Source: a virus
Lineage: Duplodnaviria; Heunggongvirae; Uroviricota; Caudoviricetes
Strand: one strand, 5' to 3'
Length of the DNA: 64,000 nt
IMG/VR virus record: IMGVR_UViG_3300025011_000026
Below are positions 1-44,087 of the stretch, piece by piece. Both the position numbers and the translations under genes were made by a program. A model generated the notes under the pieces. It did no database searches, had not been told where the DNA came from, and worked only from the letters and a program-made list of their open reading frames with translations. Every line of letters begins with the position of its first letter. Position 1 is the first letter of the stretch.

Positions 1-273
1 GATTTCATTTATTATCTCAATAAAGAAGTAGATTTAGAGGAAAATGCTTATGATTTTGATATGCCATTACCTGACAGTACAAAAGAATATTTTTTAATCT
101 TTAATGATAAGATTTGGCTTTACATAATTATATCTGATGAATATATGGGAAGTGGAGAATCTTCAACTTATGCTCATATTAATAGTATTTTAGTTCCAGA
201 AGGTACAGACATTGAAGAGGTCAGAGAAATTAAGGATTGGTTAATTAAGGGTGGATTTAAGTTATTGAAGTAG
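1..273 (+). CDS. hypothetical protein, 5' end outside window
   Basis: Frame is open from base 1 with no stop. The track Met at 61 has no SD. Confidence 0.45.
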   Translation, partial: DFIYYLNKEVDLEENAYDFDMPLPDSTKEYFLIFNDKIWLYIIISDEYMGSGESSTYAHINSILVPEGTDIEEVREIKDWLIKGGFKLLK

Positions 274-383
274 GAATTTCTTGAAAAATACAAAGTAAAA
301 TATAATATTGTGTTTTCTGAAAGTGTTGCTACAGTAGGCTTTTAGAAAACACAATATGGCATAAAACTAATCATTTAAAGGAT

Positions 384-743
384 GTGAGTATAAATTTGAA
401 TTTGCTAGAATTAAAAACAAATGTTGACTACATAATTAATAATTTACGAGATTATCAAGACCCAAAAGATATTGTTGTTGCAATTACTTTGTCGGAAAGT
501 TCAATTGGTTCAAGAGCTTTTGCTAGAATTTATTCTGCAGGTATGGGGTTTGATTGGGAAAGTGGACAATTTAGAATTGAGCCACAAACTCCTATAGTTA
601 GAAAAGGAAACACTTTTAATGATATTAAAAATGTTGAATGTAAACCATTCGAAGGTAGGAAGTATTACTTTTGCCCAAGATGTGAGAGTAAAATAAGCAA
701 AGATGATAAATTTTGTAGATATTGTAGTCAGAAATTAAAGTAA
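384..743 (+). CDS. hypothetical protein with C-terminal double zinc ribbon
   Basis: CPRC-x12-CRYC at the C-terminus, with AAAGGA upstream. Start is ambiguous (GTG 384 or in-frame TTG 396). Confidence 0.55.
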   Translation: MSINLNLLELKTNVDYIINNLRDYQDPKDIVVAITLSESSIGSRAFARIYSAGMGFDWESGQFRIEPQTPIVRKGNTFNDIKNVECKPFEGRKYYFCPRCESKISKDDKFCRYCSQKLK

Positions 744-796
744 CGTACAATAGAATTAACCTTTGATTCGATTATTAGAAAGAAGGAGTAATACAT

Positions 797-1072
797 ATGA
801 AGAAAGAAACTTTTTATTGTGATATTTGTAATAAAGAGATAAGTGAATTAGATTTAACTAAAAAATTTATTCCGGTTATTAATAAAATATATGCGACTGG
901 TGGAAAAAGTAATATAAAACTTGCATATATGGGTGAGGCATTGGAATTTGAAGAAAAAGAATTATGTTCTAAATGTTTACAAATACATGATCAAGAATTT
1001 ACAAAATATGCGACAATGTTTGCTCAAGGATGGAAAATACAAGTGGATTTTATTAAATCTCAAACCGTGTAA
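797..1072 (+). CDS. hypothetical Cys-pair protein
   Basis: SD AGAAGGAG then ATG. CDIC and CSKC pairs. Confidence 0.6.
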   Translation: MKKETFYCDICNKEISELDLTKKFIPVINKIYATGGKSNIKLAYMGEALEFEEKELCSKCLQIHDQEFTKYATMFAQGWKIQVDFIKSQTV

Positions 1073-1101
1073 ATATTAAATAAAAAATAGGAGGAATACA
1101 T

Positions 1102-1491
1102 ATGAGTGCAGACAATGGTATTTATATTTTAGAGTGCAAAGATCAATACAGAGTAATCCATGCTCAAGCAATTGATAATCTTTACTGGACTTTTCTTGAT
1201 GGTATGATGTCTGTTGATAAACCTGTATCCACTAGAATAGTAGAAATGTATGGTGATTCTAGGTATACTAGAGATATTAATATGGCAAGAAATATTGCCT
1301 TCTCAATGGAGAAAAGGCATCCAATATTAGAATATGGAGTAAGTTCAATTCGAGTTAATAAAACGTGGTATGAAATTGTGCAAGAAGCAAAGAAGCTTGC
1401 TCCTTTGGAAATTGAAGCAATTAATAACACTAAAAAAGATGATAGATGGGATTGGAATATTAAACGATTAGAGAAAATTATTGCACGATAA
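1102..1491 (+). CDS. hypothetical protein
   Basis: SD TAGGAGG then ATG. The antisense ORF 1182-1505 is treated as a shadow. Confidence 0.6.
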   Translation: MSADNGIYILECKDQYRVIHAQAIDNLYWTFLDGMMSVDKPVSTRIVEMYGDSRYTRDINMARNIAFSMEKRHPILEYGVSSIRVNKTWYEIVQEAKKLAPLEIEAINNTKKDDRWDWNIKRLEKIIAR

Positions 1492-1568
1492 AAAACTGAT
1501 TTCAAGTGATTAGGAAGGAGTTTATTTAAGTGTTAAGAAAACTAAGCCATAGATTGACATAAATTGAA

Positions 1569-1724
1569 GTGCCAAGATCAATTAAATTATTATCTTACAT
1601 AGTAATATTTTTATCAGCAATATTTGTTCCAACTTATCTTCTTTTCTTAGACCATTATATATTTGCACTTATAGCACTTGTGTTAGGTATTTATGGAATA
1701 ATTGAAAGTTTAGAGTGGCAATGA
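1569..1724 (+). CDS. possible 51-aa two-TM membrane peptide
   Basis: Translation VPRSIKLLSYIVIFLSAIFVPTYLLFLDHYIFALIALVLGIYGIIESLEWQ has two hydrophobic helices. No SD lies at GTG 1569. A good SD+GTG at 1530 is in frame but separated by TAA 1560-1562. Confidence 0.3.
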   Translation: MPRSIKLLSYIVIFLSAIFVPTYLLFLDHYIFALIALVLGIYGIIESLEWQ

Positions 1725-1752
1725 AAAAAGAAATTCAAAGGATGGTGAATAT

Positions 1753-1989
1753 ATGAGAAGAGAATTAAAGAAACCATACATAATAGATAGAATAGTACCA
1801 TTATTTTTATGGCATAAATGCGATTTGTGTGGAAGTGAATTTAAGTATGAATACGGATGGAAAATTCGCTATTCAACTACATCTAGAATTATATGTAATA
1901 CCTGTGCTGAGTTTAGTTGGGTAGCAGAAAAACTAGCACTTACATGGGGAGAATCTGGATGTGACAAGCCAAGTGTAAGACTTAAATAA
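1753..1989 (+). CDS. hypothetical zinc-ribbon protein
   Basis: SD AAAGGATGG then ATG. CDLC ... CNTC pairs. Confidence 0.6.
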   Translation: MRRELKKPYIIDRIVPLFLWHKCDLCGSEFKYEYGWKIRYSTTSRIICNTCAEFSWVAEKLALTWGESGCDKPSVRLK

Positions 1990-2032
1990 TTATACTTCGA
2001 ATCTCATATTTCGTAGGAGAGGAGGACTTCTA

Positions 2033-2158
2033 ATGATTCCGTGGGAAGAACCAATTCCAGAATGTACTGAGTGTGAGAATCATAAACCACCATATACCTT
2101 TTGTCTGTGTTGCCATTTTGCATTTAGTGAAAACAAACTGCTTCAAAAAGGAAGTTGA
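2033..2158 (+). CDS. 41-aa Cys-rich peptide (below ORF-track size cutoff)
   Basis: SD GGAGAGGAGG, 8 nt, then ATG. Translation MIPWEEPIPECTECENHKPPYTFCLCCHFAFSENKLLQKGS. Confidence 0.45.
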   Translation: MIPWEEPIPECTECENHKPPYTFCLCCHFAFSENKLLQKGS

Positions 2159-2164
2159 TTAATA

Positions 2165-2488
2165 ATGATTAGAAAATTTCCATATTTATGTGAAATGTGC
2201 AAGAAACATTTCGATGAGCCGAACATTGTTAAAGAAAATCATTGTAAATATAATGTATGTCACATTGTAATAGTAAGTGGATTACACGACCATGTTTTAT
2301 TAATTATCGATAATATCACTATTCTTAGAATAGAAAGGAGTAATATATGTCTCTATTTACTAAACAACCAATGTTTTGCTGTATTTGTGGAACTGAAATT
2401 ATGTTTGATTTTAATTATCGTGGTATTCCAATTTGTGATGTACAATGTTGGGACGAATATCAAAGAAGAAAATCTTTATATATTTTAG
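2165..2488 (+). CDS. hypothetical Cys-motif protein, 3' end doubtful
   Basis: Good SD AAGGAAG and ATG. The last ~45 codons read through the SD and body of the next gene and look like out-of-frame junk. Confidence 0.3.
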   Translation: MIRKFPYLCEMCKKHFDEPNIVKENHCKYNVCHIVIVSGLHDHVLLIIDNITILRIERSNICLYLLNNQCFAVFVELKLCLILIIVVFQFVMYNVGTNIKEENLYIF

Positions 2489-2553
2489 GGAAAAAGTATT
2501 ATGTAAAATCACAGCAAACAACTTTTGGTTTGATGAAAGGAGAATTATTATAA
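2347..2553 (+). CDS. hypothetical zinc-binding protein
   Basis: SD AAAGGAG then ATG. CCICG ... CDVQC motif. Confidence 0.55.
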   Translation: MSLFTKQPMFCCICGTEIMFDFNYRGIPICDVQCWDEYQRRKSLYILGKKYYVKSQQTTFGLMKGELL

Positions 2554-2756
2554 TAAGATGTAAAAGAAGATTAATAAATTGTTATGAAGATTCGTGTAAA
2601 GAAGATATAATATCAAGTATTAAAGCATCTATATCATTTGAAGGTTTAGAACCTAGTGATTATGCTGTTAATTTAATTGACCAATATGCAGATGGTAAAA
2701 TCACTGTTGAAAAATATATTGCTAAAATAAAAGAAAAATATAATATTGGAAGTTAA
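2544..2756 (+). CDS. VbhA-like antitoxin-domain protein (start uncertain)
   Basis: SISFEGLEPSDYAVNLIDQYADGKITVEKY matches the S-x3-E-G inhibitory helix motif of VbhA/FicA-type antitoxins. No ATG/GTG/TTG follows the SD AAAGGAGA; only ATT/ATA codons do. The track Met at 2445 has no SD. Confidence 0.5.
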   Translation: MIIIRCKRRLINCYEDSCKEDIISSIKASISFEGLEPSDYAVNLIDQYADGKITVEKYIAKIKEKYNIGS

Positions 2757-2782
2757 AAATGTTAGTTGAAGGAGGAATAAAT

Positions 2783-2974
2783 ATGTCTAATAAAACATTA
2801 AGCAAATATCTTGAAGACAATATTAAAAATAATGTAATTGATCATGCTATTAGAGCGCATAAAGATGATTATGGCAATATAGTTTTCTATATTCATCCTG
2901 CAAATGTAAGTGGAGACACCTTAGATTTTCTAGTGGATGAAAACGTATTATATCAGATGAATTATGAAGATTAA
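2783..2974 (+). CDS. hypothetical protein
   Basis: SD GAAGGAGG then ATG at 2783, in frame with track ORF 2759. Confidence 0.55.
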   Translation: MSNKTLSKYLEDNIKNNVIDHAIRAHKDDYGNIVFYIHPANVSGDTLDFLVDENVLYQMNYED

Positions 2975-3018
2975 TATCCTTCGAATCACAAATTTTATTT
3001 GAAATGAGATGATTATTA

Positions 3019-3135
3019 ATGTGCAAATATAGAAACTCTGAATATTTTTGTGCAATCACAAAAGAAAAATGTAATCAAAAGTCTGACTATGAATGTATCA
3101 TATATATTTCATACGAAGAAATGATTAGAGAATAA
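3019..3135 (+). CDS. possible 38-aa Cys-rich peptide
   Basis: Translation MCKYRNSEYFCAITKEKCNQKSDYECIIYISYEEMIRE. The SD is weak. Confidence 0.3.
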   Translation: MCKYRNSEYFCAITKEKCNQKSDYECIIYISYEEMIRE

Positions 3136-3183
3136 CAAATTATAAAATAAATACTTGACTTAATACCTTGCCCATGTTATTAT
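3134..3183 (+). promoter_or_regulatory. sigma-A type promoter with extended -10 and conserved upstream 20-mer
   Basis: TTGACT (3155-3160), 17 nt, TGtTATTAT (-10 at 3178-3183). It is preceded by AACAAATTATAAAATAAATA, which recurs identically at 23526. Confidence 0.6.
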
Positions 3184-3255
3184 ATAAATATACCAAATAC
3201 ATAAATAAATACTTCGAATTATTTCTTTTAATTGAAGACAGAAAGGAGGTTAATT

Positions 3256-3399
3256 GTGGATAAACTAAATTTACTTATACGAGAAATATTTAAAGAGATG
3301 AATACTAATTATGATGAACATCAAGCAGTTAAAATTGGCGAATTAATAACTGATTATTGCATTGATAAAGATTGGGATATTTATAAAGAATATAATTGA
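3256..3399 (+). CDS. 47-aa hypothetical protein
   Basis: SD AAAGGAGG, 7 nt, then GTG. Translation MDKLNLLIREIFKEMNTNYDEHQAVKIGELITDYCIDKDWDIYKEYN. Confidence 0.4.
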   Translation: MDKLNLLIREIFKEMNTNYDEHQAVKIGELITDYCIDKDWDIYKEYN

Positions 3400-3419
3400 A
3401 AAGGGGACTAAAATACATA

Positions 3420-3580
3420 ATGCAACAAAAAGTTAAAGCAAAATCAAAGGTACATTTTGGGGAACTGCTACAGTTATCATAGACCATGACGGAACAATTA
3501 TTGAAGTAGAAGAAGTGGAAAACCTTGATGATTTCGATGATTGTGAAGTTAGAGAAATAATTTATAGGATTAGAGGATAA
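3420..3580 (+). CDS. small acidic protein split by an apparent frame change
   Basis: ATG 3420 opens a 20-codon frame. The protein-like body (GTATVIIDHDGTIIEVEEVENLDDFDDCEVREIIYRIRG) is in the -1 frame and has no start codon. The junction lies in A/T/G runs at 3437-3462. Confidence 0.35.
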
Positions 3581-3582
3581 AA

Positions 3583-3831
3583 ATGGAAACAATTACCCTA
3601 CAAGATAATCATAAAAAAGCTATGAGCAGTAAAATTACCAAAGCAATTAATTCTATTCCAGATGAAACAATTCAAGAAATATTTTTAGATTATATTGCAA
3701 ATGAGATTGACAATTTGTATTCTGAAAGTAATTTCCAAGACATTATAGAATCTCAATTAAGAGAAATTGTTAGAAATATGTTTATCGAAAAGGGATTACT
3801 AAAAGCAACAAAAATTGAGGAGAGTGTTTAA
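3583..3831 (+). CDS. hypothetical protein
   Basis: SD GAGGA then ATG, directly after the previous stop. Confidence 0.6.
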   Translation: METITLQDNHKKAMSSKITKAINSIPDETIQEIFLDYIANEIDNLYSESNFQDIIESQLREIVRNMFIEKGLLKATKIEESV

Positions 3832-3834
3832 TAA

Positions 3835-4131
3835 ATGGAAAAGAAAATTACACTTAAATATCTAACGCCATTAGAATTTATTGCTACATACACAAGAGAA
3901 GAATTTTTTAGAGGAGAACATGATAGTGAAAGAAAATGGTTAGAAGAGGATGCAGGAATGCCTATATTGAATATTATTGCAAAAATTACAACTGGCAATT
4001 ATGATCAACTTATTATGAAAACTTTTGATAAATTCGCTCCAAAAGTAGGATTTTTGTATTGTGGAGAACACGATATATTTCATGAGTATGTAAATTGTCC
4101 ATTCTGTCAGTTAGACATACGAGTTGATTAA
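3835..4131 (+). CDS. hypothetical protein
   Basis: SD GAGGAG upstream. C-terminal CGEH ... CPFC pair. Confidence 0.6.
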   Translation: MEKKITLKYLTPLEFIATYTREEFFRGEHDSERKWLEEDAGMPILNIIAKITTGNYDQLIMKTFDKFAPKVGFLYCGEHDIFHEYVNCPFCQLDIRVD

Positions 4132-4185
4132 ATAGTTGAATGGTATATTTTCTAGCAATTTAAGAAAGAAAGGAATTGATACATA

Positions 4186-4515
4186 ATGGATAAAGAATTG
4201 TTTAAAGAGTTAGAAGAAGCATCAAAACCATTGCAGGACTTCTTAATGAAACATTTTGATCAAATGACTAAAATAGAGGTAGAAATTGGTCATATTAATG
4301 TGTTAAACGGAGTAATGGGAATGCCTACTGAAATTGATGATTCTGTAAAACAAATTGATAGATATATGAATGATAAAGAGAATTGTGATAATTGTAAATA
4401 TAATTTTATTGATTTTAATTTGGGTTGTTATGATAGGTGGTATGAGATGAATAGGATTTATACTAGAAAAATTGGAGATAATAGTGAAATGATTAATTGT
4501 TGGGAGCAAGGATAA
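4186..4515 (+). CDS. hypothetical protein
   Basis: SD AAAGGAA then ATG. The antisense ORF is treated as a shadow. Confidence 0.6.
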   Translation: MDKELFKELEEASKPLQDFLMKHFDQMTKIEVEIGHINVLNGVMGMPTEIDDSVKQIDRYMNDKENCDNCKYNFIDFNLGCYDRWYEMNRIYTRKIGDNSEMINCWEQG

Positions 4516-4570
4516 ATCAATTGAATAGTCGATTTCCAATGAAAATAAATTAAAAAGGAGAGATTAATAA

Positions 4571-5341
4571 ATGAATTATGATGATTATGACTATGAAACC
4601 CAATATGAACCAAGCGAAGTAGATCAATTAGTTGAAGAGTTTAGAGATAAAATTAGGGAACATTTATTACCTAATATTCAAGAAGAAATTGATCGCCTAA
4701 ACAAAGAAAATATTGAACTTAGACAAAAATATAATGAATATAAGACTAAGGAATCCGAATTAAGTAATAAGGAAAGAGACTTAAAATATAAAGAAGATAA
4801 TCTTAAAAGAGAAGTTGAAAGAGAATTTTATGCAAGTAACATAGGCGACACTTTGAAAGATTACATAGAAAATGCAGAAGTGTGGTTCGCGGATAGTAAG
4901 GGATTTCAACAAGATAAATGTCATTTATGTAATGATAAACGTAAATTAGTTGCTGAATTCCCTGGTGGTAAAACAACAGAAATAAATTGCGATTGTAGTA
5001 GAATAATATCTAAGTATGTTCCAGAAATATCTGAGTTATCTACTATTAGATTTAGCAAAAGAGATAGTCAATATCAATCAGAAAGAAAATTTTATTTATG
5101 GAAAACTTTTGTACCATCAGGAAAATCTAGTTATTATGATGATCACAGCTATAATGATTTTAAACTTTGTCAAATAGTAGACGAATTTAATGATAGTACT
5201 AAAGAACTTCATGAAGATAAGAAATGGGATACAAAAATTGGATTCAAAATTAAAGAAGAATGCCAAAAATATTGCGATTGGTTAAATAGAGACAAGACGG
5301 AAGAAATTGAAGAAGAAAACGATGAGGGAGATGAAGATTAA
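4571..5341 (+). CDS. hypothetical coiled-coil / Cys-cluster protein
   Basis: SD AAAGGAGAG. Heptad-like EEIDRLNKENIELRQKYNEYK, CHLC ... CDC cluster, acidic C-tail. Confidence 0.65.
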   Translation: MNYDDYDYETQYEPSEVDQLVEEFRDKIREHLLPNIQEEIDRLNKENIELRQKYNEYKTKESELSNKERDLKYKEDNLKREVEREFYASNIGDTLKDYIENAEVWFADSKGFQQDKCHLCNDKRKLVAEFPGGKTTEINCDCSRIISKYVPEISELSTIRFSKRDSQYQSERKFYLWKTFVPSGKSSYYDDHSYNDFKLCQIVDEFNDSTKELHEDKKWDTKIGFKIKEECQKYCDWLNRDKTEEIEEENDEGDED

Positions 5342-5403
5342 ATCCGAGGAAAAATTAGATTCGAGGGATTTTAGAAATAATTAAAATGAAAGAAGGAAAC
5401 AAT

Positions 5404-5970
5404 ATGGAAATATTTGATATTGAAAAACACTGGGATGATTTCAAAAACAATAAATTGGTGGTAAATTGTCCAACTCAAGAATTAGCAAATGAGTTTCATG
5501 ATTATTGTAGCAAACAAAATATTACATGGTTTGGTCACTCAATAAAAAATAATTATTGGAGTGACGAAAGTACTTGTTATAGACACCAAACATCACTTAC
5601 TTTTGCAGATATAGAACATTATGAAAATGAACATTATACAATAGTTGAATTCCAAGGACTTTCTAAAGACAAGATAAAAATTGAGATAAAAATTCCAACA
5701 GAAACATCCAAAGAAATCATTAAAGTAATCTATCACAATAAAGAAACAATTGTATTAATCAAGTCAGATGGCAGATATTATAAAGGCGTTGTCAGTTGTC
5801 ATTATCAAGATACATATGATAAAGAAATTGGATTTCAAAGAGCGTATGAAATTGCAAGAGAAAAATATAATGAATTTAAGGGATGTGAAAATAAAGTAAT
5901 CACCAAAACAAAAAATATTAATGATGATGACTTATATCCTATAAATTTGACTTATGGAGAATTGAATTGA
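5404..5970 (+). CDS. hypothetical protein
   Basis: SD AGAAGGAA then ATG 5404. The in-frame ATG at 5386 lacks an SD. Confidence 0.6.
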   Translation: MEIFDIEKHWDDFKNNKLVVNCPTQELANEFHDYCSKQNITWFGHSIKNNYWSDESTCYRHQTSLTFADIEHYENEHYTIVEFQGLSKDKIKIEIKIPTETSKEIIKVIYHNKETIVLIKSDGRYYKGVVSCHYQDTYDKEIGFQRAYEIAREKYNEFKGCENKVITKTKNINDDDLYPINLTYGELN

Positions 5971-6169
5971 ATTTAATTTTTAATATAATTGGTAGTGTTA
6001 ATGATAGAGGTAGTTATGAAAGATATTATGATGATCAAATTAAAAATGAAATTGATAGTATGTTGAATAAAATAGATATTGTTAGAGATGCAATTTGTAA
6101 TAAAGATTAAAGAGTATAATCCTTCGAAAGTTTCAGTTTATCTGAATTTAAGAAAGGAATGATAAAATA

Positions 6170-6355
6170 ATGCAAATCAGAATTATTAAAAATGATCCTC
6201 CTGTTAATGGAGCAAGTGATATTAGTAAATATGTTGGTCAAATTTTTAATGCACAAAAAGATGGAGACGGAGATGTTTCAATAGTCGAAGGGCTATTATA
6301 TGCAATGACAATATTTAATGGAGAATATGAAATTGTAGAGGAGGAAAATAATTAA
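6170..6355 (+). CDS. hypothetical protein
   Basis: SD AAAGGAA then ATG. Confidence 0.55.
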   Translation: MQIRIIKNDPPVNGASDISKYVGQIFNAQKDGDGDVSIVEGLLYAMTIFNGEYEIVEEENN

Positions 6356-6684
6356 TGAAATGCGAATTGTGTTTACTTCGTGGAGAAGATGAAAAAGAAG
6401 AATATTTAAATTTACATCTAATTGTAAAAGAAAATCACTATCAAAAATTCATTCTTAAAGATGATGGAACACTAGAATATGAGGATTCTGATGCAGATCA
6501 AACAATGTATTTAGAATGTCCTCTATGTGGAACTAAATTTGATTTAGATACAGATTATAAGAACTTTTCATTACAAATGGAAGAAAGACATGTCATTACG
6601 AGATTAGATTTTAACAATTATAAAAGTGAAAATCCTATTGTTAATTTGAATGATTATAAAATTATAGAGAGGATGGGCGATTAA
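6355..6684 (+). CDS. hypothetical zinc-ribbon protein
   Basis: TAATG overlap with the upstream stop. SD GGAGGAGGA. CELC and CPLC pairs. Confidence 0.6.
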   Translation: MKCELCLLRGEDEKEEYLNLHLIVKENHYQKFILKDDGTLEYEDSDADQTMYLECPLCGTKFDLDTDYKNFSLQMEERHVITRLDFNNYKSENPIVNLNDYKIIERMGD

Positions 6685-7019
6685 TGAAAATTGAATTCAA
6701 CTTATTCAAATTAAAGAAAGACAGTAAAACTTATCAACAATGGTCAACAAAAGATTATATGAAGAAAGAATTAGACCTTGACATTATCATTGTTGGAAAA
6801 GAGAAATTAGGTGATAAATTATACCTTAGAGGTTCTACCATTGGTGATAAAGGATTAACTTTGATTGGTGGTTTAATGCTTGATGAAAGTGGTTATTTAA
6901 TTCCAGAAGAAGATTTGCAATATACATCTTGTTCAATGGAATTCAATATCCATAAAAAGTATTTGAATGTTAGAATTATTGAGGATATTCAGAGAATCAA
7001 TGATAGGTTAATTGGATAA
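6684..7019 (+). CDS. hypothetical protein
   Basis: TAATG overlap with the upstream gene, suggesting translational coupling. Confidence 0.6.
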   Translation: MKIEFNLFKLKKDSKTYQQWSTKDYMKKELDLDIIIVGKEKLGDKLYLRGSTIGDKGLTLIGGLMLDESGYLIPEEDLQYTSCSMEFNIHKKYLNVRIIEDIQRINDRLIG

Positions 7020-7034
7020 ATAAAATTAAAGGAA

Positions 7035-7208
7035 GTGAAAATAATTATCTTAGCAGAAAAGATTATTGCATACATAAAAAATGAAGCAGATAAAGAAGTT
7101 GCAAGAAAAGCTAAGGCAATGGATAAAGATATAAGAGGATGCATTAGTCAAAGCATCTATAGAAATCAGCGTATGCTTAAAAGATTTATTGGGTGTGGTC
7201 AGAGGTAA
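7035..7208 (+). CDS. 57-aa hypothetical protein
   Basis: SD AAAGGAAG then GTG. It fills an otherwise empty 220-nt gap. Confidence 0.35.
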   Translation: MKIIILAEKIIAYIKNEADKEVARKAKAMDKDIRGCISQSIYRNQRMLKRFIGCGQR

Positions 7209-7241
7209 TACATATATAAACTAAAGAAAAAGGAGTTTAGT

Positions 7242-7529
7242 ATGAAGAAATTTTTCCACATCGTATTACCAATCATATTATCAATTGGTTTAACTGGCTG
7301 TGGTAGTAAAGGTACAACAGTAACTAGAATAAGTCAATATGATGGAGTTAAAGTTGTTTTTACGGGTAGCGTAGATAATCAATATGCTACATATGAATGG
7401 AAACTTAGAGATTATGATTTTACTGAAAAAGGAATGGAAGAAATCGTAAAACTAAATCCTAAAAACGGAGATAGAGTTAAAATAAATACTATAGGGTCTT
7501 TAATACTAAAATTGACCATATTGAATTAG
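7242..7529 (+). CDS. lipoprotein
   Basis: N-terminal MKKFFHIVLPIILSIGLTGC carries signal peptide II with lipobox LTGC. SD AAAGGAG. Confidence 0.75.
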   Translation: MKKFFHIVLPIILSIGLTGCGSKGTTVTRISQYDGVKVVFTGSVDNQYATYEWKLRDYDFTEKGMEEIVKLNPKNGDRVKINTIGSLILKLTILN

Positions 7530-7559
7530 TTCCTTAAAAACTAAAGAAGGAAACAATAA

Positions 7560-7967
7560 ATGCTTACAAAACCAGAACATGGTTGGACTAACCTACAAAT
7601 TAATGACTTCTCAGAAAGAGCGAGTTACATGACAAACATACCAAATGAATTTCTAGATGCTTTTATCAGTGCTTTACAAAATAGCACTCCTGCTGTAGTT
7701 TTCTTTGATGCTGAAGGTTGGGGCTTTCATTTGGTTGCATCATACTATTGTAGTTATATTATTGTAGATAAGGATGATGCAAAATTATTTACAGTTAGCA
7801 AGAATATTCATGCATTAGCAAAAGAATTATATGATGATATAAATAATAACCTTGATGATTGGACTAATTGGTATTTAGATGAAAGCGATACAGAGGAAGA
7901 AAGAAAAGAGTATAGGATGGTGTTGGAAGATAAATTAAATCAATTAAATATAGAGATTAACAAATAA
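7560..7967 (+). CDS. hypothetical protein
   Basis: SD AGAAGGAA then ATG. Confidence 0.6.
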   Translation: MLTKPEHGWTNLQINDFSERASYMTNIPNEFLDAFISALQNSTPAVVFFDAEGWGFHLVASYYCSYIIVDKDDAKLFTVSKNIHALAKELYDDINNNLDDWTNWYLDESDTEEERKEYRMVLEDKLNQLNIEINK

Positions 7968-7983
7968 AATGGAGAGTGATTAA

Positions 7984-8454
7984 ATGTCAATGACCATAGG
8001 TGTAATTTCAGGTATGGTAGCATTAGGTGCTTTTGGTATAGGATATTATTTATACAACTCTAAAAACAAATCTATTCCTAATTCTAATTCTAAACCAGAA
8101 ATCAAAGTAAAAGAAATCAAACAAAAGCAAAAAGTTGAATTATCACAGAAAACATATGCTCCATTAAATTATGTTCCTAAAAATACAAAACCAACTCCTA
8201 AGACAACTTATAATTCTAATTCTAATCAAAATCGTAAGAATAATAATCATGTTGAAGATGATTATTTGTTAAATACTTCAATAGGTTTTGGAATTATTAG
8301 TTCTGCATCAGATGATCATGATAGTCATAAACATTCATATCATAGTTCGCATAGTTATCATGACTCACATGATAGTGGTAGTAGTTCGCATAGCTCGTAT
8401 GATTCTGGTGGCAGTTCTGACTCAAGTAGTTGTGATTGTGGAGGATGTGATTAA
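7984..8454 (+). CDS. membrane-anchored protein with His/Ser/Asp-rich tail
   Basis: One N-terminal TM helix (IGVISGMVALGAFGIGYYLY). C-terminus is DDHDSHKHSYHSSHSYHDSHDSGSSSHSSYDSGGSSDSSSCDCGGCD. Confidence 0.6.
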   Translation: MSMTIGVISGMVALGAFGIGYYLYNSKNKSIPNSNSKPEIKVKEIKQKQKVELSQKTYAPLNYVPKNTKPTPKTTYNSNSNQNRKNNNHVEDDYLLNTSIGFGIISSASDDHDSHKHSYHSSHSYHDSHDSGSSSHSSYDSGGSSDSSSCDCGGCD

Positions 8455-29786: not shown

Positions 29787-30011
29787 TTGAATAAACGTCA
29801 AAACAAAAAGAAGATAAAATATATTTTAAATAATATTCAAACAATAAATCTTAAAGAAAATGAGTTCTTATTATTTAGATTTGATACAAACAAATGGAAG
29901 CCGAAAGATTTGGCAGACTTTTCTCAACAGATTTCTGAAAATATAACTAGCAAGATAATTTTTATACCATCAGATCTTGAAATGAAAAAAGTAATTGAAC
30001 AAACAAAATGA
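29787..30011 (+). CDS. hypothetical basic protein
   Basis: SD GGGAGGGGAA then TTG. Confidence 0.5.
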   Translation: MNKRQNKKKIKYILNNIQTINLKENEFLLFRFDTNKWKPKDLADFSQQISENITSKIIFIPSDLEMKKVIEQTK

Positions 30012-30495
30012 TAGTTTCGTATGTTCAAAGAAAGAAGGTAATATTATAGAAAATCTATTGCAATTCCAAGAAGAATTATCTCTCAAATATAAATACAGAA
30101 AACTTAATAAAACTCTATCGGCAGAAGTTAGACAAAAATATCTGGATAATTTACCTCAACAATTAAATGTAGATGGTGATATTAATTTCAAAATACATAG
30201 TTTAGAAGGTACATTAATATCCAAAGGTTACAATCGAATCGTTATTGGTGACTATGGAGCGTTTATTGAATTTGATAAAAATCAAATTAAAGGAAAACTT
30301 AAAGTAAAAGTTGGTCAAGAATATAGAATTGATAATCCTAAGTATAGTGAGAATGTTAAATACTATTGGTTAACTCCTAAAGATAATAGCGATATGAAGA
30401 TATATTATCAAAAAAGAACTGTAAGTTATGCAGATTATAAACCAGAGATGTATTATGTTTCACCTTATGAAGTTTTATTAGAAGGTGAATTATGA
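29995..30495 (+). CDS. hypothetical protein (start uncertain)
   Basis: Long open frame. TTG 29995 has a weak SD. A better SD AAGAAGG is followed only by ATT/ATA codons. Confidence 0.5.
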   Translation: MNKQNDSFVCSKKEGNIIENLLQFQEELSLKYKYRKLNKTLSAEVRQKYLDNLPQQLNVDGDINFKIHSLEGTLISKGYNRIVIGDYGAFIEFDKNQIKGKLKVKVGQEYRIDNPKYSENVKYYWLTPKDNSDMKIYYQKRTVSYADYKPEMYYVSPYEVLLEGEL

Positions 30496-31253: not shown

Positions 31254-31937
31254 ATGCCAATAAGAACTGAACAAATTGACGTATCTTTTAACCTCAAACT
31301 TCAAAAAGACCTCCAAGAACATGAAGTAATTTGCTCCCACTGTGGAGGCACAGGACTCCAAATAGATAATAATCCATTTGGAATTAAAGAAGAAAATAGT
31401 AAAGTTCATTTTCCATATAAGCAACAAACAATTATAGGTTGTAGACATTGTTACAATGGAGTTCAAAGTAAATGTTTACATTGTAATAAAATATTAGATA
31501 GAGGAACATCTCAATGCAATTGTGAAAAATATATACAAGAACGTACTCAAGAGCGACATAGTAAAGATTTGGGAACATGGAATAAAGCAAAGAAAATATC
31601 ATTTGAACAAGCAAGTGAAAAATATACAATGTTTTATATTTCTGAACATGATAAGTATATCAATGTTGAAGATTTTGAAGATTGGATACATGATAAAGGT
31701 TATGAGGAAGACGAGGTTGCATCATTAAGAGTTTATGGCACAAGTGTAATTGATTTATCGATTGATGCTTCTGATGTTATTGAAAACGCTTGTAGCGACT
31801 TACACGAAGATGCTAGAGATAATATTTTGGTGCAAGATGAAGAAAAACTTCAAGTGTTATTGGACAAATGGTGTGAAGAAAATAATGCAGGAACAACGAC
31901 TTATTATGCTGATTTTAATGTCGGGATAAATATGTAA
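31254..31937 (+). CDS. hypothetical protein with DnaJ-like CxxCxGxG zinc motifs
   Basis: SD AAGGAG, 11 nt, then ATG 31254. CSHCGGTG and CRHC ... CLHC motifs. Confidence 0.6.
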   Translation: MPIRTEQIDVSFNLKLQKDLQEHEVICSHCGGTGLQIDNNPFGIKEENSKVHFPYKQQTIIGCRHCYNGVQSKCLHCNKILDRGTSQCNCEKYIQERTQERHSKDLGTWNKAKKISFEQASEKYTMFYISEHDKYINVEDFEDWIHDKGYEEDEVASLRVYGTSVIDLSIDASDVIENACSDLHEDARDNILVQDEEKLQVLLDKWCEENNAGTTTYYADFNVGINM

Positions 31938-31956
31938 AAGAAAGGATGTAAATTAA

Positions 31957-32253
31957 ATGACCACATATAAAATCACTACACAAGAAGAGCTAGATAAATT
32001 AAACACAGATTATCTCAAACATTGCCCTCAAGAATCAAATTTAAAATGGTCTGGATGTAATTATTATATAAATCAAGGTAGCAATAAGCATGAACCTCTA
32101 GGTACAGCACAATCTATGCATGACTGTGATAATTGTGAAAGACTAGACTATTGCGAAGCTAATTTTGATACTCCTACTTGGTTTTGGGATAATGAAATTG
32201 AGCAGAGATTAAAAAATATTATTAATTCTTATATAAGAAAAGATGTGAATTAA
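31957..32253 (+). CDS. hypothetical protein
   Basis: SD AAAGGATG then ATG. Confidence 0.55.
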   Translation: MTTYKITTQEELDKLNTDYLKHCPQESNLKWSGCNYYINQGSNKHEPLGTAQSMHDCDNCERLDYCEANFDTPTWFWDNEIEQRLKNIINSYIRKDVN

Positions 32254-32254
32254 A

Positions 32255-32626
32255 ATGAAATTATGGGAATATGTTCTTGCGAATGACAAAGAAGCAGATT
32301 TTATAAAATGGAAAAGTGGAAAAAATAAATCAGAAGATAAAATATTAATCTATGATTATTGTCCTATGTCTTTTGAATGTTTGACTGACACTGAGTATAA
32401 TACAGCATATAAATTAAAAAATAAAAAGGGAGATTGTAAATATCAAGAAGTTAATCATGAAGATATTCGATTAGAATATTACGACAATAAAGATCAATTT
32501 GAAAAAGCTTTTCTTAAAGAGTATAAGATTTGTAGTGAATGTTGGAATAGGGAGATAAAGGATAAAACAGATGAAGAATATGAAATGTATTTAAAACTTA
32601 AAGAAAAATTTGATCCTAGCAAATAA
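32255..32626 (+). CDS. hypothetical protein
   Basis: ATG 1 nt after the previous stop. Confidence 0.55.
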   Translation: MKLWEYVLANDKEADFIKWKSGKNKSEDKILIYDYCPMSFECLTDTEYNTAYKLKNKKGDCKYQEVNHEDIRLEYYDNKDQFEKAFLKEYKICSECWNREIKDKTDEEYEMYLKLKEKFDPSK

Positions 32627-32708
32627 TGATTTTATGTTATATTCATTAGGTATTAATGCTTTCCTATCAAGCATTTAATATAATAAATTAATAAAGGATT
32701 GGTTAAAT

Positions 32709-32963
32709 ATGAAAGCTCTAGAAGACATACTTAATATGGTAAATCGAGAAAATAGACTATCAAATTCAATTACTAACAATATTATTAAAGATATTTATCA
32801 AAATTATCATGTAATGAAAGATTTTGAAGATAAAATTACAGAACCTGCACGAGGGATTAGACAAATGCTTGAATCTACTCAACAAATATTTGAAAAACAA
32901 AACCCTCATATAGATAGAGGACTCTCTTTATTCTTATCATCAATCAATAAACGATACCTATAA
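32709..32963 (+). CDS. hypothetical protein
   Basis: SD AAAGGATTGG then ATG. Confidence 0.55.
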   Translation: MKALEDILNMVNRENRLSNSITNNIIKDIYQNYHVMKDFEDKITEPARGIRQMLESTQQIFEKQNPHIDRGLSLFLSSINKRYL

Positions 32964-34868: not shown

Positions 34869-35019
34869 CAATTCAGTGGGGATAAATACATAAAGCAAAG
34901 AGGTGTTCATTCTGGAACAAAACAATCAAAATACATATAACCCAGATTCTCTTGATTCTCTAGATTCTTTAGGCATATTAGGGGGAGTCAGGGCAAAACC
35001 TGCAAGAAAGGATAAAATT

Positions 35020-35970
35020 ATGACCAAAGGTAAAATAGTGAATATTGGAGATAAATTTATAAGTAATAAAGGATATGAATACGAGGTTATAAATAAATTA
35101 AAAGGAGGAAAATATGAAGTTAGATTTAAAGATACAGGATATATAGCTAAGTCTGACAAAAAAGAAGTTTTAAATGGATGCATACGAGATTGGGAGGCTC
35201 CTTATGTCGTTGGTATAGGGATAGTTGGAAAAGAAATAGATCATCCCCAAAAGCATTATTTATATGATAGATGGAGAGATATGTTAAGACGGTGTTATGA
35301 TAATAGGTGTAATAGTTATTGTACATATGGAGCAGTAGGAGTAACAGTTGATGAAAAATGGTTTAGATTTATTAATTACGTAAATGATATCGAAACTAAG
35401 GAAAATTTTGAAAAATTAAAGATAAAAAATTGTGGTTGGGAAATAGATAAAGATTTAAAAGGGAATGGTACAAAAATATATTCTAATGCAACAACTTCAA
35501 TAATAAGAGAAGAAGAAAATATTAAAGAAAGAAATATCAGGCAAGATAATCCAGCAATAAAGCTTAAAATAAAAGTCATGCAATTTACAACAGAAGGCAA
35601 TTTTATTAAAACGCATGAGAGTATTACTGAAGCTATGAAGTTCATCGGTGTTATAAATGGTAGTGGCTCATGTATAATTGATTGTTGTAAAAGTAGAGCA
35701 AAGACAGCTTATGGGTTTGCATGGATGTATGAAAAAGATTTTATAGATTTTGAATCAGCTCGTATAAAAATAATACATAGATTAGAATATATTCCAGATA
35801 AGTATCGTAAAATAGTTTTGAAAATGGACAATGACTATAACATTATAGATGAATTTAAAGGGTTAAAAAGAGCATCTGAAAGTTTAGGTGCTACTGTTGG
35901 TGCAATAGCAAATGCCATAACAAGAGGGAACAAATGTAAAGGATTTATAGTGAGATACAAGGAGGAATAA
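35020..35970 (+). mobile_element. free-standing homing endonuclease-like gene with two NUMOD-type HTH modules
   Basis: YLYDRWRDMLRRCYD ... YGAVGVTVDEKW core, common in phage HNH/AP2-type endonucleases. Two C-terminal modules (ITEAMKFIG ... KTAYGFAWMY and LKRASESLG ... KCKGFIVRY). It has its own promoter and lies immediately 5' of the topoisomerase gene. Confidence 0.55.
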
Positions 35971-35973: not shown

Positions 35974-37965
35974 ATGAGCGACAAAATAACCGTACTATCA
36001 TACAAACAAAAGGCCAGAGAAAGAATTAATGTCTTTCATGGTTCAGCAAATCATTTTTTGAACATGGTGAAAGAATTGATCGCAAATAGTTTCGACATAT
36101 TTAGCAAAGACAAACTAAATACTATTAAAATTATATTACATAATGAAAATAAAATTGAATATATTGATTCTGGAATAGGCATTCCAATTGAGGGTATTGC
36201 TAGTGATGGTAGTCCTAGTTATCAAGCTATATTTGAAAGAGATTTTGCAGGAAGTAGATACGGCAATACAGAGCAAACAGCAGGTCAAAATGGCATATTT
36301 TTGTATACCCTAACAATGACATCAGAAGATATTGAATACTTTATAGCTAGACCAGATGGAAATTTATACAATATAAAATATCATAAAGGAGATATGGTAT
36401 CAGATTTAAAAATTATAGGTAAGGAGGAAACTACTTATTCAAGAATGATATTTTCACTTGATGGAGAAGTATGGAATAATCCTAAATTTATATTTCAAGA
36501 AATATGTGATATAGCACAAACACAGTCTTCATTATGTAATGTAAAAATTACAATAGAAGACAAAGAGAATAACTTAACAAATGAATTTTACTATGAAAAT
36601 GGGATATTAGATTACTTTAATGACACAACTCAAAACAAAGATATTGTTACAGATCAAATTAGGATTTCCCAAATTAAAAAACCAACAATAGAGAAGGTGA
36701 TCAAAGGAATCCCTAAAAAAATTGAAGATATTGTTTCGATTGATTTTATATTTTCTTATTCAAATGATTCTAATGAAGACTTTAAAAAAGAGTTTTTAAA
36801 TACTGCTGATTTATTGTTGCATGGAACAATTCAAGATGGTATATATGCTGGATTAAAAAATTGTATCAACAAATGGTTAAAAGATAATGGAAAATATGCT
36901 AAAAATGAAAAACAAATATCTATTGATGATATTTCCACAGGACTAAACTATATTTGTAACGTATTTAGTTATTATGTAGAATATGATAATCAAATTAAGC
37001 AGAAAACATCAGCAAAGCACTATAAAACTGTTTTACAAGAAACAATTGAAGAATTTATGGAAATATATTTTATTGAAAATAAAGAGGAAAGTGAGAAATT
37101 AGCCAATGCAATCCTCTTAAACAAAAGAATCCGTGAAAAATCTGAAATCAATAGGAAAAATATCAAGAAAGAATTAGAAGAGAAAATAACTAATCAAGTT
37201 AATAGACCTGCTAAATTTGTACCATGTAGAAGCAAAAATCCTTTAGAAATAAAATTCACATTGATTGAAGGTGATTCTTCCTTAAATAGTGTCAAATTAG
37301 CTCGTAATGCTTATGATACTTGTATTTTACCATTGAAAGGGAAACCGATAAATCCTTTTAAATGTAAAATAGATGCTTTATTAAATAATGAAGAAATAAA
37401 ATCTATTTTTAAAATATTGGGTTGTGGTATGGAATATAAAGGTAAATCTATAAAAGGAGTTCCTAAATTTAATATTGACAACTTACAAGTTGATAGAGTA
37501 CAGATTGCGACAGATTTTGACAATGATGGTTATCACATACAAGCATTATTGATTGGTATATTTTATACTTTATCACCTGAACTATTAAAACAGGGTAAAA
37601 TTTATATTCTTTATACTCCTTTATACGTAATCAAAACAAAAAAGCAGACAGAATACAAAAATGAAATCACAGATACTTTATTAGCTTATAGTGAAATGGA
37701 AAGGAATGAAATTGTAAATAAACTTCATGATGAAGATATTTCATTCAAAGAAACAAGGTTTAAAGGATTAGGAGGGTTACCTGTTTCTATCATGTCAAAA
37801 GCATTAAGTGAAAACAGTATGATTATGAAACAAATAACTATGGATGACGTTGAAGAAAGTAAAAAATGGTTAGAATTATTCCTATCAGAAGAAAAATTAA
37901 AAGATAGAAAAGAATATATTGAAACTCATGGTAATAAATATTTCGACTATTCTTTGTTTGAATAA
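35974..37965 (+). CDS. type II DNA topoisomerase, ATPase/Toprim subunit (GyrB/ParE/T4 gp39-like)
   Basis: GHKL motifs ELIANSFD and DSGIGIP. Toprim EGDSS, PLKGKPINP and IATDFDNDGYHI. Confidence 0.8.
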   Translation: MSDKITVLSYKQKARERINVFHGSANHFLNMVKELIANSFDIFSKDKLNTIKIILHNENKIEYIDSGIGIPIEGIASDGSPSYQAIFERDFAGSRYGNTEQTAGQNGIFLYTLTMTSEDIEYFIARPDGNLYNIKYHKGDMVSDLKIIGKEETTYSRMIFSLDGEVWNNPKFIFQEICDIAQTQSSLCNVKITIEDKENNLTNEFYYENGILDYFNDTTQNKDIVTDQIRISQIKKPTIEKVIKGIPKKIEDIVSIDFIFSYSNDSNEDFKKEFLNTADLLLHGTIQDGIYAGLKNCINKWLKDNGKYAKNEKQISIDDISTGLNYICNVFSYYVEYDNQIKQKTSAKHYKTVLQETIEEFMEIYFIENKEESEKLANAILLNKRIREKSEINRKNIKKELEEKITNQVNRPAKFVPCRSKNPLEIKFTLIEGDSSLNSVKLARNAYDTCILPLKGKPINPFKCKIDALLNNEEIKSIFKILGCGMEYKGKSIKGVPKFNIDNLQVDRVQIATDFDNDGYHIQALLIGIFYTLSPELLKQGKIYILYTPLYVIKTKKQTEYKNEITDTLLAYSEMERNEIVNKLHDEDISFKETRFKGLGGLPVSIMSKALSENSMIMKQITMDDVEESKKWLELFLSEEKLKDRKEYIETHGNKYFDYSLFE

Positions 37966-37982
37966 AGGAGGATTATATCAAT

Positions 37983-40175
37983 TTGGCAAACATTACAAAA
38001 ATAGAAGCAGGATTGCATACAAAAGAATCTTATATGCCTTATGCTATGAGTACAATATTAGATAGAGCATTACCTGATGTTAGGGATGGCATGAAACCAA
38101 TCCATAGAAGAGTTCTTTATTCTATGTATAAAGCTGGAATTACATATGATAAAGATAGGGCAAAGACAACTGAACCTATTGCAGAAACAATGAAAATACA
38201 TCATCATGGAGACGCTTCTATTTTGGAAGCTCTTGCTTTAATGACTGAGCAAAATGAATCATTGTTACATCCGTATATTGATGGAGAAGGTGCTTTTGGA
38301 AAAGTTTATTCAAAAGATAGTCCATCAGCCCCAAGATACACATATTGCAGATTAAATAAATTCTCTGAAGAATATTTTAAAGATGTTGATAATGGAGTTA
38401 TTCAATTAATTGGTGAAGACAAAAAACACTTACAACCAATTGTTTTAAGTTCTAGTTTTCCTAATATTCTTATTAAAAATAATTCTGGAATCGCTTGTGC
38501 TGAGGCATGTAATTTCCCTAGTTTTAATTTGTCAGAAGTGTGTGATACAACAATTGAATATATCAAAGATGAGAATGTCTATTTGCTAAACACATTAAAA
38601 GCTGTAGATTTTTCTACTAGAGGAGAATTAATTTACAATGAAAATGACTTGAATAAAATATATGATACAGGTCAAGGATCAATTCTACTAAGATCAAAAT
38701 ACACTTATGACAAAACCAATAATTGTATAGATGTATATGAAATTCCATATAGTACAACTGTTGATACTATAATATCTAAAATTACTGATTTAATTAAAAA
38801 AGACAGTGGTTTTAAAGATATTTTAGATATTAGAGATGAGACTGGATTTAATACAAAAACAAGCAAAGAAGAAATGAAGATTACAATTGATGTAAAAAAG
38901 AATACAGATGTGGATTTGTTAATGAAAAAACTTTTTAAGAAGACTCCATTGCAATCATATTTTTCAGCAAATATGAATTGTTTGGTTGATTATAAACCAA
39001 AAGTATTAGGCATTAAACAAATACTTGATGAGTGGCTTAAATTCAGATATGAGTGTGTTAATAAAGGATTAGAATATAATATTAATACATTATCAGGTAA
39101 ATTACATTTACTCAAAGGATTAGAGAAAGCATTATTGGATATTGATAGTGTTATTGCAATTGTTAGAAATTCTGAAAATGATAATAATGCCATACAAAAA
39201 TTAATGAACAAATTTAATATTGATAATGAACAATCTGAACATATAGTTGATATAAAATTAAGAAACATAAACAAAAATTATATTGTCAATAAAATTAAAG
39301 ATATTCAATTATTTGAACAAAATATCAACGACTTAAAATACAAGCATGATAATAAAGAAGAAATTGATAAAATTATTATTGATGATTTGGAAAGAATTAA
39401 GAAAGCATATGGCGTACCTCGTAAAACAGAAATAATTTACTCAGATTCAATGGAAGATGTATCAGAAGTGCAATTGATCGAAGATTATAATATCAGATAT
39501 TATTTAACCAATGATGGTTATTTAAAGAAAATTCCTTTGACATCATTAAGAGGAAGTTCTGAGCATAAATTAAAGGAAAAAGATTATATTATGTCTGAAA
39601 TTGATTCAACTAATAAATCTGATTTACTTTTATTCTCTAACAAAGGAATAGCATATAAATTAAAATCATATGAATTGCCTGATACAAAAATATCAAATCA
39701 AGGAGAATATTTGTCCAATATCATTGACTTAGACAAAGATGAAAAAATAATATATATGATTTCTACTACAGACTACTCAGGTTATTTATTACTTGCTTTT
39801 AAAAATGGTAAAATTGCTAAGATTAATTTATCCTCATATGCTACAAAAACAAACAGGAGTAAATTAATTAATGCTTATAGTACAGATAGTGAAATTGTAA
39901 ATATGTTACATTTAGAAAAAGATGTTGATTTATTGTGCAAGAGTAGTATTAATAAGGTATTAATTATTAATACAAATCAAATTGCAGTTAAATCAAGTAA
40001 GATGAGCGTAGGGGTAAGTGTATTGAAGAGTAAGAATGAAAGTTGTATGGATTTATGTGTTTTGTTGGAGGTGGTTAGTGGATTAGATGATGAGGGAATT
40101 AAGTATTATAGTGGGAATGTTAATTCTGTTGGGAATTATTTGAAAAAGGGAGATGTTATTAATGTTGTAAGGTGA
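37983..40175 (+). CDS. type II DNA topoisomerase, DNA-cleavage subunit (GyrA/ParC-like)
   Basis: RALPDVRDGMKPIHRRVLYSM, HHHGDAS, and active-site Tyr context SAPRYTYCRL. SD AAGGAGG then TTG. Confidence 0.85.
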   Translation: MANITKIEAGLHTKESYMPYAMSTILDRALPDVRDGMKPIHRRVLYSMYKAGITYDKDRAKTTEPIAETMKIHHHGDASILEALALMTEQNESLLHPYIDGEGAFGKVYSKDSPSAPRYTYCRLNKFSEEYFKDVDNGVIQLIGEDKKHLQPIVLSSSFPNILIKNNSGIACAEACNFPSFNLSEVCDTTIEYIKDENVYLLNTLKAVDFSTRGELIYNENDLNKIYDTGQGSILLRSKYTYDKTNNCIDVYEIPYSTTVDTIISKITDLIKKDSGFKDILDIRDETGFNTKTSKEEMKITIDVKKNTDVDLLMKKLFKKTPLQSYFSANMNCLVDYKPKVLGIKQILDEWLKFRYECVNKGLEYNINTLSGKLHLLKGLEKALLDIDSVIAIVRNSENDNNAIQKLMNKFNIDNEQSEHIVDIKLRNINKNYIVNKIKDIQLFEQNINDLKYKHDNKEEIDKIIIDDLERIKKAYGVPRKTEIIYSDSMEDVSEVQLIEDYNIRYYLTNDGYLKKIPLTSLRGSSEHKLKEKDYIMSEIDSTNKSDLLLFSNKGIAYKLKSYELPDTKISNQGEYLSNIIDLDKDEKIIYMISTTDYSGYLLLAFKNGKIAKINLSSYATKTNRSKLINAYSTDSEIVNMLHLEKDVDLLCKSSINKVLIINTNQIAVKSSKMSVGVSVLKSKNESCMDLCVLLEVVSGLDDEGIKYYSGNVNSVGNYLKKGDVINVVR

Positions 40176-44080: not shown

Positions 44081-44087
44081 TAAGAAT

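Follow-up and report, generated by a model that had tools for sequence, protein, structure and literature searches.

What does a homologue of a Fic antitoxin do on a phage-like element in which no Fic gene is found, and can it be made at all when no canonical start codon follows its ribosome-binding site? Both questions are raised by an open reading frame (ORF) at 2544-2756 (+ strand) of the window, the 64,000-nucleotide (nt) stretch of viral DNA analysed here (IMG/VR record IMGVR_UViG_3300025011_000026). The window corresponds to the first 64 kb of the 92,482-bp Joint Genome Institute (JGI) metagenome contig 3300024999|Ga0209728_1000074. The frame has 70 codons counted from 2544 (68 from an ATA codon at 2550), terminates at TAA 2754-2756 and encodes IIIIRCKRRLINCYEDSCKEDIISSIKASISFEGLEPSDYAVNLIDQYADGKITVEKYIAKIKEKYNIGS. 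An earlier note, made from the sequence alone, had described it as an orphan VbhA/FicA-like antitoxin domain and had proposed that an element carrying only the inhibitor could neutralise a Fic toxin or Fic-based defence of its host. The results below support this interpretation in part: they bear out the family and the solitary status, and the anti-Fic function is what we propose on their basis.

The product of frame 2544-2756 is a homologue of the VbhA/FicA-type class I Fic antitoxins, as determined by hidden Markov model (HMM) search, fold, motif and Fic-adjacent relatives. The Pfam family VbhA (PF18495) matches the 70-residue product with E=1e-6 and 29.0 bits (gathering score 25.9) over HMM positions 6-47 of 47, and is also a precomputed match in most of its close relatives. 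The S-x3-E-G inhibitory motif pointed out in the earlier note is present as S-I-S-F-E-G, of the [S/T]xxxE[G/N] type, at 2628-2645 (+ strand): it lies within SISFEGLEPSDY (2628-2663), with S29 encoded at 2628-2630, E33 at 2640-2642 and G34 at 2643-2645. The pattern [ST]xxxE[GN] is uninformative by itself, occurring 38 times in the six-frame translation of the window. In an alignment of 45 relatives, E33 is the sole invariant column, and K27, A28, S29 and G34 are conserved in at least 90% of sequences. PHROGs matches are to families of unknown function only, the best being phrog_18905.

An AlphaFold2 model built from the alignment of 45 relatives predicts three helices (residues 15-32, 39-49 and 55-65), with a mean predicted local distance difference test (pLDDT) score of 71; the score is 77-88 over residues 21-70 and below 50 for residues 1-15. 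The S29-x3-E33-G34 motif is located at the C-terminal end of predicted helix 1, and in EcFicA and VbhA the inhibitory motif is likewise found at the end of helix 1 (PMC5033356, from which the definition of the motif is taken). When the model was compared with 350,542 PDB chains using Foldseek, the top five matches were BiaA (5eu0_B, 5nh2_B) and VbhA (3zcb_B, 3shg_B, 3zc7_B), with probabilities of 0.96-1.00 and template modelling (TM) scores of 0.63-0.70 normalised to the target.

Relatives that are linked to a Fic gene agree with this assignment. The protein P0050, named 'antitoxin VbhA family protein' by NCBI, is 43% identical to the window protein over the VbhA domain, and its gene lies 13 nt upstream of that for a 196-residue Fic protein with the motif HPFREGNGR in six gut-metagenome or genome contigs. 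A second antitoxin, 51% identical to the window protein, is encoded directly before a Fic gene on the viral contig L037 (IMGVR_UViG_3300002838_000038), which was the only addition made by a second viral scan with a broader alignment. The core IKASMSFEG is common to the window family, P0050 and the L037 antitoxin. The closest homologues (P0002-P0026) are from groundwater and landfill metagenome contigs, plus two IMG/VR viral contigs (L020 and L021); no relative was recovered when 185,579 species genomes were scanned with the family patterns. In addition, the Syntrophomonadaceae phage L028 (GenBank PV036453.1, record 31466-32857) has an unannotated VbhA-like ORF just downstream of that for a 357-residue Fic protein. 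This Fic carries HPFNDGNGR plus an SNRIEG motif of its own, and the 'hypothetical protein' annotated there is on the opposite strand.

The window gene has no Fic partner nearby, as the earlier note had stated. A regular-expression search for the Fic motif H-x-F-x-[DE]-G-N-[GK]-R in all frames of the 64-kb window gave no match; the same search recovered the expected motif in the positive controls (L022-L027). Pfam gave no Fic or Doc match for the window ORFs that were retained (at least 45 amino acids up to approximately 17 kb and at least 55 amino acids beyond, with those mostly overlapped by a longer ORF dropped). There is likewise no Fic among the precomputed Pfam hits of the near-identical contigs L029 and L030 over the approximately 7 kb past the window end, where lysis and tail-like genes are found. 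Nor was the motif present in any of the related loci L002-L021 (10 kb to each side of the gene, for a maximum of 20 kb per locus). The toxin-less antitoxin homologue is thus conserved on several distinct phage-like contigs, namely L002-L021 and the window, and within the sequence examined it constitutes a solitary FicA-type clade on related phage-like elements. FicTA modules are defined by an adjacent, co-transcribed Fic toxin gene (HPFx[D/E]GN[G/K]R); since the window locus has none, we group it with the orphan antitoxins.

The second question concerns the start. The extended Shine-Dalgarno (SD) sequence GAAAGGAG is located at 2535-2542 (+ strand), with AAAGGAGA at 2536-2543, and is followed by ATT (2544), ATT (2547), ATA (2550), ATA (2553), AGA and TGT in a frame that is open to TAA 2754-2756. 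The run at 2544-2555 (+ strand) holds the only candidate starts. ATA 2550-2552 has the 7-nt spacing typical of this genome; ATT 2547 is 4 nt and ATA 2553 10 nt from the SD. The single canonical in-frame start, ATG 2445, is 33 codons upstream and is used by the public JGI call P0001 (103 amino acids). We rejected it: it has no SD, it is inside ORF 2347-2553 (which is in another frame), and there is no homology to relatives upstream of 2535.

The earlier claim that only ATT and ATA codons follow the SD therefore stands for the window; as a description of the gene it does not, as this state is confined to some copies and sister contigs have an ATG at the same place. Two forms of the gene can be distinguished. 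Short forms (L002-L006, L019 and L021) start with MNKHD or MRKHE just before the VbhA domain and have a textbook SD and ATG. Long forms carry an N-terminal extension, R(C/G)KRRLINCYEDSC (2556-2600, + strand, in the window), that is predicted to be disordered and is restricted to these members. Among long-form relatives, differences within the extension (R-G-K-R-R-L-I-N-C-Y-E-D-S-C) are mostly synonymous (GGT/GGC, TTA/CTA and TCA/TCG/TCC), which argues that it is translated. In the long forms L007-L011, L016 and L012, an ATG directly follows AAAGG(G)A. L017, L018 and L020 have an ATG followed by an in-frame TGA, so that the VbhA-like gene reads ATG TGA TTA ATT ATA ATA in L017 and L020; they represent a second lineage of VbhA-like genes that have no usable canonical start (L017/L018 53-271; L020 9994-10210). 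The sequence ATT ATA ATA AGA is kept in the window, L007, L016, L017 and L020, with ATT ATA ATA retained in four variants, and L007 and L016, like L012, also have an ATG just upstream. Because close relatives have this ATG, its absence appears to be a derived state of the window allele and not a feature of the gene family.

Comparison with these relatives also suggests where the ATG was lost. Between the upstream zinc-ribbon gene and the VbhA-like gene, the window has a Cys-rich ORF of 68 amino acids (MSLFTKQPMFCCICGTEIMF...; 2347-2553, + strand) with a strong SD and an ATG. This ORF is unique to the window contig: no counterpart was found in any related locus, and its PHROG match is weak (phrog_888, E=0.009). 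Similarity to relatives ends at 2323-2333 and restarts at 2535. On each side of the insert there is a copy of the intergenic and SD sequence, the two copies being similar, and the junction reads GAAAGGAG-AATTATTATA. The ancestral ATG was thus apparently lost at the junction with the inserted ORF, as a result of the insertion.

Could the window copy be translated nonetheless? The window holds eight copies of GAAAGGAG, all on the + strand; apart from the copy at 2535, each precedes an ATG or GTG gene start (six at 6-9 nt and one at 14 nt). The stop codon of the inserted ORF, TAA 2551-2553, overlaps both ATA 2550 and ATA 2553; this ATAA stop/start overlap is arranged like the ATGA overlaps through which neighbouring genes are translationally coupled. 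In Staphylococcus aureus, natural AUA starts have been reported in infC, ccpN and citZ and an AUU start in cvfC1, and extended SD motifs have been described for infC, cvfC1 and ccpN; reporter output from the cvfC1, ccpN and citZ starts was approximately 10-30% of that from AUG (bioRxiv 10.1101/2025.06.19.660503). From its sequence context, initiation at ATA or ATT in the window copy is plausible. The lack of a canonical start in the window may reflect either SD-driven, coupled AUA/AUU initiation or incipient pseudogenisation.

The earlier note had also drawn attention to a similar arrangement near 30035, which the sequence bears out: GAAAGAAGG (30030-30038) is followed by ATT 30043 and, at a spacing of 7 nt, by ATA 30046 (the site as a whole spans 30030-30048, + strand). 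The gene has been called at 29995-30495. It reads ATA GAA AAT from 30046, and in-frame TTG codons are also present at 29995 and 30058. In the homologous gene of L034 (102-590; start region 102-150), TAA-AAAGGAGG is followed at 7 nt by ATA GAA AAT, and an in-frame TGA immediately before it rules out any canonical start there. At the codon corresponding to ATA 30046, eight homologues have the start M-ENLL. The gene called at 29995-30495 thus very probably starts at ATA 30046. Public calls for this gene and that of L034 resort to extension to a distant TTG or to genetic code 4. A code in which TGA is a sense codon was considered and rejected: long ORFs do not gain length under translation table 4, and TGA is the stop codon of 9 of 81 genes. 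The hint at code 4 had come from the ENA calls P0002 (MW...) and P0091 (MDW...), in which an in-frame TGA is read as Trp.

Taken together, we read the window gene as a solitary class I Fic antitoxin homologue with a role in counter-defence or anti-addiction, expressed in the window copy at a reduced level from an AUA or AUU start; we give this reading a probability of roughly one half. It builds on the observed family membership, fold, motif, absence of Fic, loss of the ATG and ribosome-binding-site context. Mechanistically, the helix 1 glutamate E33 would pair with the second arginine of the Fic active-site motif, as in VbhA and EcFicA, and this pairing would block productive ATP binding by Fic. 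Because the element has no Fic gene in the sequence searched, the protein would have to act on a Fic AMPylase from another source: a FicT toxin of the host, a defence protein similar to SoFic or the Fic module carried by a rival mobile element. The gene would then act for counter-defence or against addiction. Expression in the window, if any, would depend on GAAAGGAG and AUA 2550 (or a neighbouring AUU or AUA), and would probably be both coupled to upstream termination at UAA 2551-2553 and reduced in level.

Several points weigh against this reading. Fic binding, the identity of the target and actual translation are steps that we infer. With respect to family, the Foldseek E-values for BiaA and VbhA are weak (0.08-0.5), as the protein is tiny (approximately 60 residues); a search of PDB sequences with a profile of the nine closest relatives gave no meaningful match and missed VbhA; and NCBIfam and PADLOC scans of the protein gave no match. 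The search for Fic on this element covered 64 kb plus approximately 7 kb of the 92,482 bp of the contig. No ATG, GTG or TTG is present in frame from the SD to the stop at 2754-2756. Substitutions on the window lineage comprise one synonymous and five non-synonymous changes, an approximately neutral ratio; one of the five (M26I numbered from the R at 2556, M30I in the numbering used for E33) replaces a Met that is conserved in at least 90% of relatives. Finally, the adjacent zinc-ribbon gene is frameshifted in the window.

The last of these points lead to the most serious alternative, which we nevertheless consider unlikely: that the window gene, having lost its ATG to the insertion, is a recently inactivated remnant of a family that is functional in sister phages; it would no longer yield useful amounts of protein, and its frame would be open only because mutations have so far been few. 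The ATG that is present in L007-L011, L016 and L012 is gone here, a conserved Met has become Ile, and 1 nt is deleted from the zinc-ribbon gene next to it. The five non-synonymous changes specific to the window (G2C, M26I, S39N, E53K and H62Y, numbered from the R at 2556) stand beside synonymous:non-synonymous counts of 4:4 on the L016 lineage and 1:0 on that of L007. The ratio of non-synonymous to synonymous substitution rates (dN/dS) is 0.27-0.54 in pairs with the window and 0.16-0.33 among the others, but the counts, with six substitutions on the window lineage, are far too small for significance. For the same reason, the intact 70-codon frame says nothing either way: with approximately six lineage-specific changes, it is expected even without selection. 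On the other side, the SD is of the strongest type in the genome and all its other copies are working ribosome-binding sites. L017, L018 and L020 also have no usable ATG, yet the frame is kept there with conservative change. AUA and AUU starts are, moreover, documented in low-GC Firmicutes and are likely in the phage group of the window.

The zinc-ribbon gene itself suggests another alternative, in which the protein is produced but acts with a partner other than a Fic enzyme, the clade having been re-used, for example together with the zinc-ribbon protein; we regard this as improbable. The zinc-ribbon gene (CxxC...CxxC; 2165-2313, + strand) is a conserved upstream neighbour in most relatives. 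The synteny of the two genes is seen in the window, L002-L011, L016 (by tblastn) and L020, and both genes are damaged in the window. The damage to the zinc-ribbon gene, a 1-nt deletion near 2261, is evident from alignment with L007, L016 and L002 (the gene is intact in L020) and has given rise to a spurious 107-residue public gene call at 2165-2488. A partner other than Fic would also suit the fact that no member of the clade has a Fic gene, as well as the extra basic, Cys-containing N-terminal segment of the long forms. However, the synteny is not obligatory, since L012, L019 and L021 have different upstream neighbours, and comparison of the 49-residue zinc ribbon with NCBIfam and PHROGs gave no match to a toxin family. 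Conservation of the protein, the solitary clade included, is highest at the inhibitory Glu and the K-A-S-x-S-F-E-G around it, as a Fic-directed function predicts.

It is very improbable that the gene is not truly solitary and that its cognate Fic is encoded in the approximately 71-92 kb part of the contig. The uncovered part leaves room for such a gene, the approximately 7 kb beyond the window having been surveyed by way of a near-identical contig. Class I FicTA genes are, however, adjacent pairs (PMC5033356; the P0050 and L037 loci), none of the related elements carries a Fic in the 10 kb to each side of the gene, and lysis and tail-like genes occupy the region past the window end. Weakest of all is the idea that the VbhA-like domain is the C-terminal part of a fusion with ORF 2347-2553, made by a -1 frameshift in the 2439-2553 overlap: the VbhA frame is indeed the -1 frame of this ORF, open from 2439, and a G AAA AAG in register at 2490-2496 resembles the A AAA AAG site of dnaX, but we rejected the fusion as a main model because none of the heptamers in register is a canonical X XXY YYZ, ORF 2347-2553 occurs in this contig and in none of the relatives (so that the fusion is no family feature), and the conserved coding sequence has a complete SD immediately before it.

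A bolder version of the reading that we prefer, that of a solitary antitoxin directed against Fic, would make the clade a dedicated anti-Fic counter-defence and the first phage inhibitor of Fic AMPylase toxins or defences, such as FicT or SoFic-like proteins, in a phage group that routinely uses AUA/AUU starts (2550, 30046 and L034) behind an extended SD for low expression. This is tentative, and we think it rather unlikely in its full extent.

The element that carries the gene has a GC content of 28.6% and strong AGGAG-type SD sequences before its genes. Its replication and nucleotide metabolism genes, as identified using Pfam, include those for DnaB, a primase-like protein, a PD-(D/E)XK nuclease, DNA polymerase III alpha and ribonucleotide reductase, as well as GyrB- and GyrA-like topoisomerase subunits, ThyX, a guanylate-kinase-like protein and Rep O; an Amidase_3 protein and a C1-peptidase/Big_2/SPOR protein are also encoded. 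The nearest relatives of the polymerase (40-46% identity) are in large Bacillota phages: Geobacillus E3, the Lactococcus 949 group, Clostridium botulinum c-st and Bacillus phages. Megablast of window positions 1-8000 against the INPHARED phages gave no match. The best reading of the element is a large phage or phage-plasmid of a low-GC Gram-positive (Bacillota) host, and the VbhA-like gene is in its accessory, probably early, gene region.

Beside the phage-type replication module, plasmid- or conjugation-type genes are located at 43595-58557. These include genes for an actin-like ALP/ParM protein (46518-47495, - strand), a VirB4-like ATPase (52814-54322), a coupling-protein-like ATPase (54306-56021), a Replic_Relax protein (55927-56691) and DndB (57007-58557), and the region also encodes Rep O and an M23 peptidase. 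The GyrB-like and GyrA/ParC-like type II topoisomerase subunits are encoded at 35974-40175. GyrB and ParE are reported targets of class I Fic toxins; a link between the solitary antitoxin and these genes of the element is speculation. Two further observations concern other ORFs of the element. In the 519-residue guanylate/dNMP-kinase-like ORF at 40904-42463, the kinase match begins only at residue 345, and the N-terminal stretch running from ...SGFSAC VDGD... to ...FITGN CGKDS suggests a putative intein in the P-loop. Two large ORFs that have no Pfam hits are found at 58621-60339 (- strand) and 34903-35970; they contain repeated Cys-rich and 'VICITTGEIF...CC.G..KSAGK' modules that resemble the DNA-binding repeats of homing endonucleases.

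How the locus compares with known systems can be considered first for its start. The resemblance to the AUA and AUU starts of S. aureus extends to the 8-nt SD (GAAAGGAG), the spacing of approximately 7 nt to AUA, the low-GC genome and the strong use of SD sequences. In contrast, the non-AUG codon is conserved in S. aureus, whereas the state in the window is derived and may be mere damage. Together with the site near 30035, the locus provides two test cases for AUA/AUU initiation in phages of low-GC bacteria. Standard gene callers mishandle such starts, either extending the ORF to a distant ATG or invoking genetic code 4. If the window copy is a dying allele, the case is an ordinary one.

Among Fic antitoxins, VbhA of Bartonella schoenbuchensis, BiaA and EcFicA (YhfG) are, like the window protein, small and helical, with an [S/T]xxxE[G/N] motif that ends helix 1 and an invariant Glu. 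They differ from it in several respects: the window gene has no adjacent Fic, its product is only 13-20% identical in sequence to the solved structures, and its long-form relatives have the additional N-terminal basic, Cys-containing segment. Furthermore, these three antitoxins come from proteobacterial toxin-antitoxin loci, whereas the window gene is on a phage-like element of a low-GC host. Closer relatives are the antitoxins of the FicTA modules of gut Clostridia (P0050 with its 196-residue Fic) and of L037, the closest Fic-linked relatives found, which share the IKASMSFEG core; there, a Fic with HPFREGNGR is encoded a few nt downstream, and no such gene accompanies any member of the window clade.

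Fic AMPylases are known as the toxins of toxin-antitoxin modules. Gyrase and topoisomerase IV, for example, are inactivated by VbhT (PMC5033356). A Fic domain is also the basis of SoFic, an anti-phage defence that is held in check by AS1, a small antitoxin encoded downstream (PMC12249575). From these activities, Fic enzymes are plausible targets, and the role of SoFic in defence makes Fic a plausible target for an inhibitor carried by a phage. The parallel with SoFic is that a Fic AMPylase acting in defence is restrained by a small protein; a difference is that SoFic belongs to class II of the Fic proteins and carries an inhibitory helix at its own N-terminus. In the literature searched, we found no description of a phage-encoded inhibitor of a Fic enzyme, and a toxin-less FicA-type clade in phages is a concrete and easily testable anti-Fic candidate.

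The window gene is most similar in its setting to the orphan antitoxins of mobile elements, being an antitoxin homologue that lacks a toxin and is located among small accessory genes; it differs from them in that neutralisation by its product is a proposal drawn from its family and context. For plasmids, orphan antitoxins have been proposed to serve in counter-defence or anti-addiction, both for pVbh (PMC5675462) and for hipB in leading regions (PMC11541004). In phages there is experimental precedent: T4-like phages carry orphan DarG-like antitoxins that act against DarTG1 (PMC11825919).

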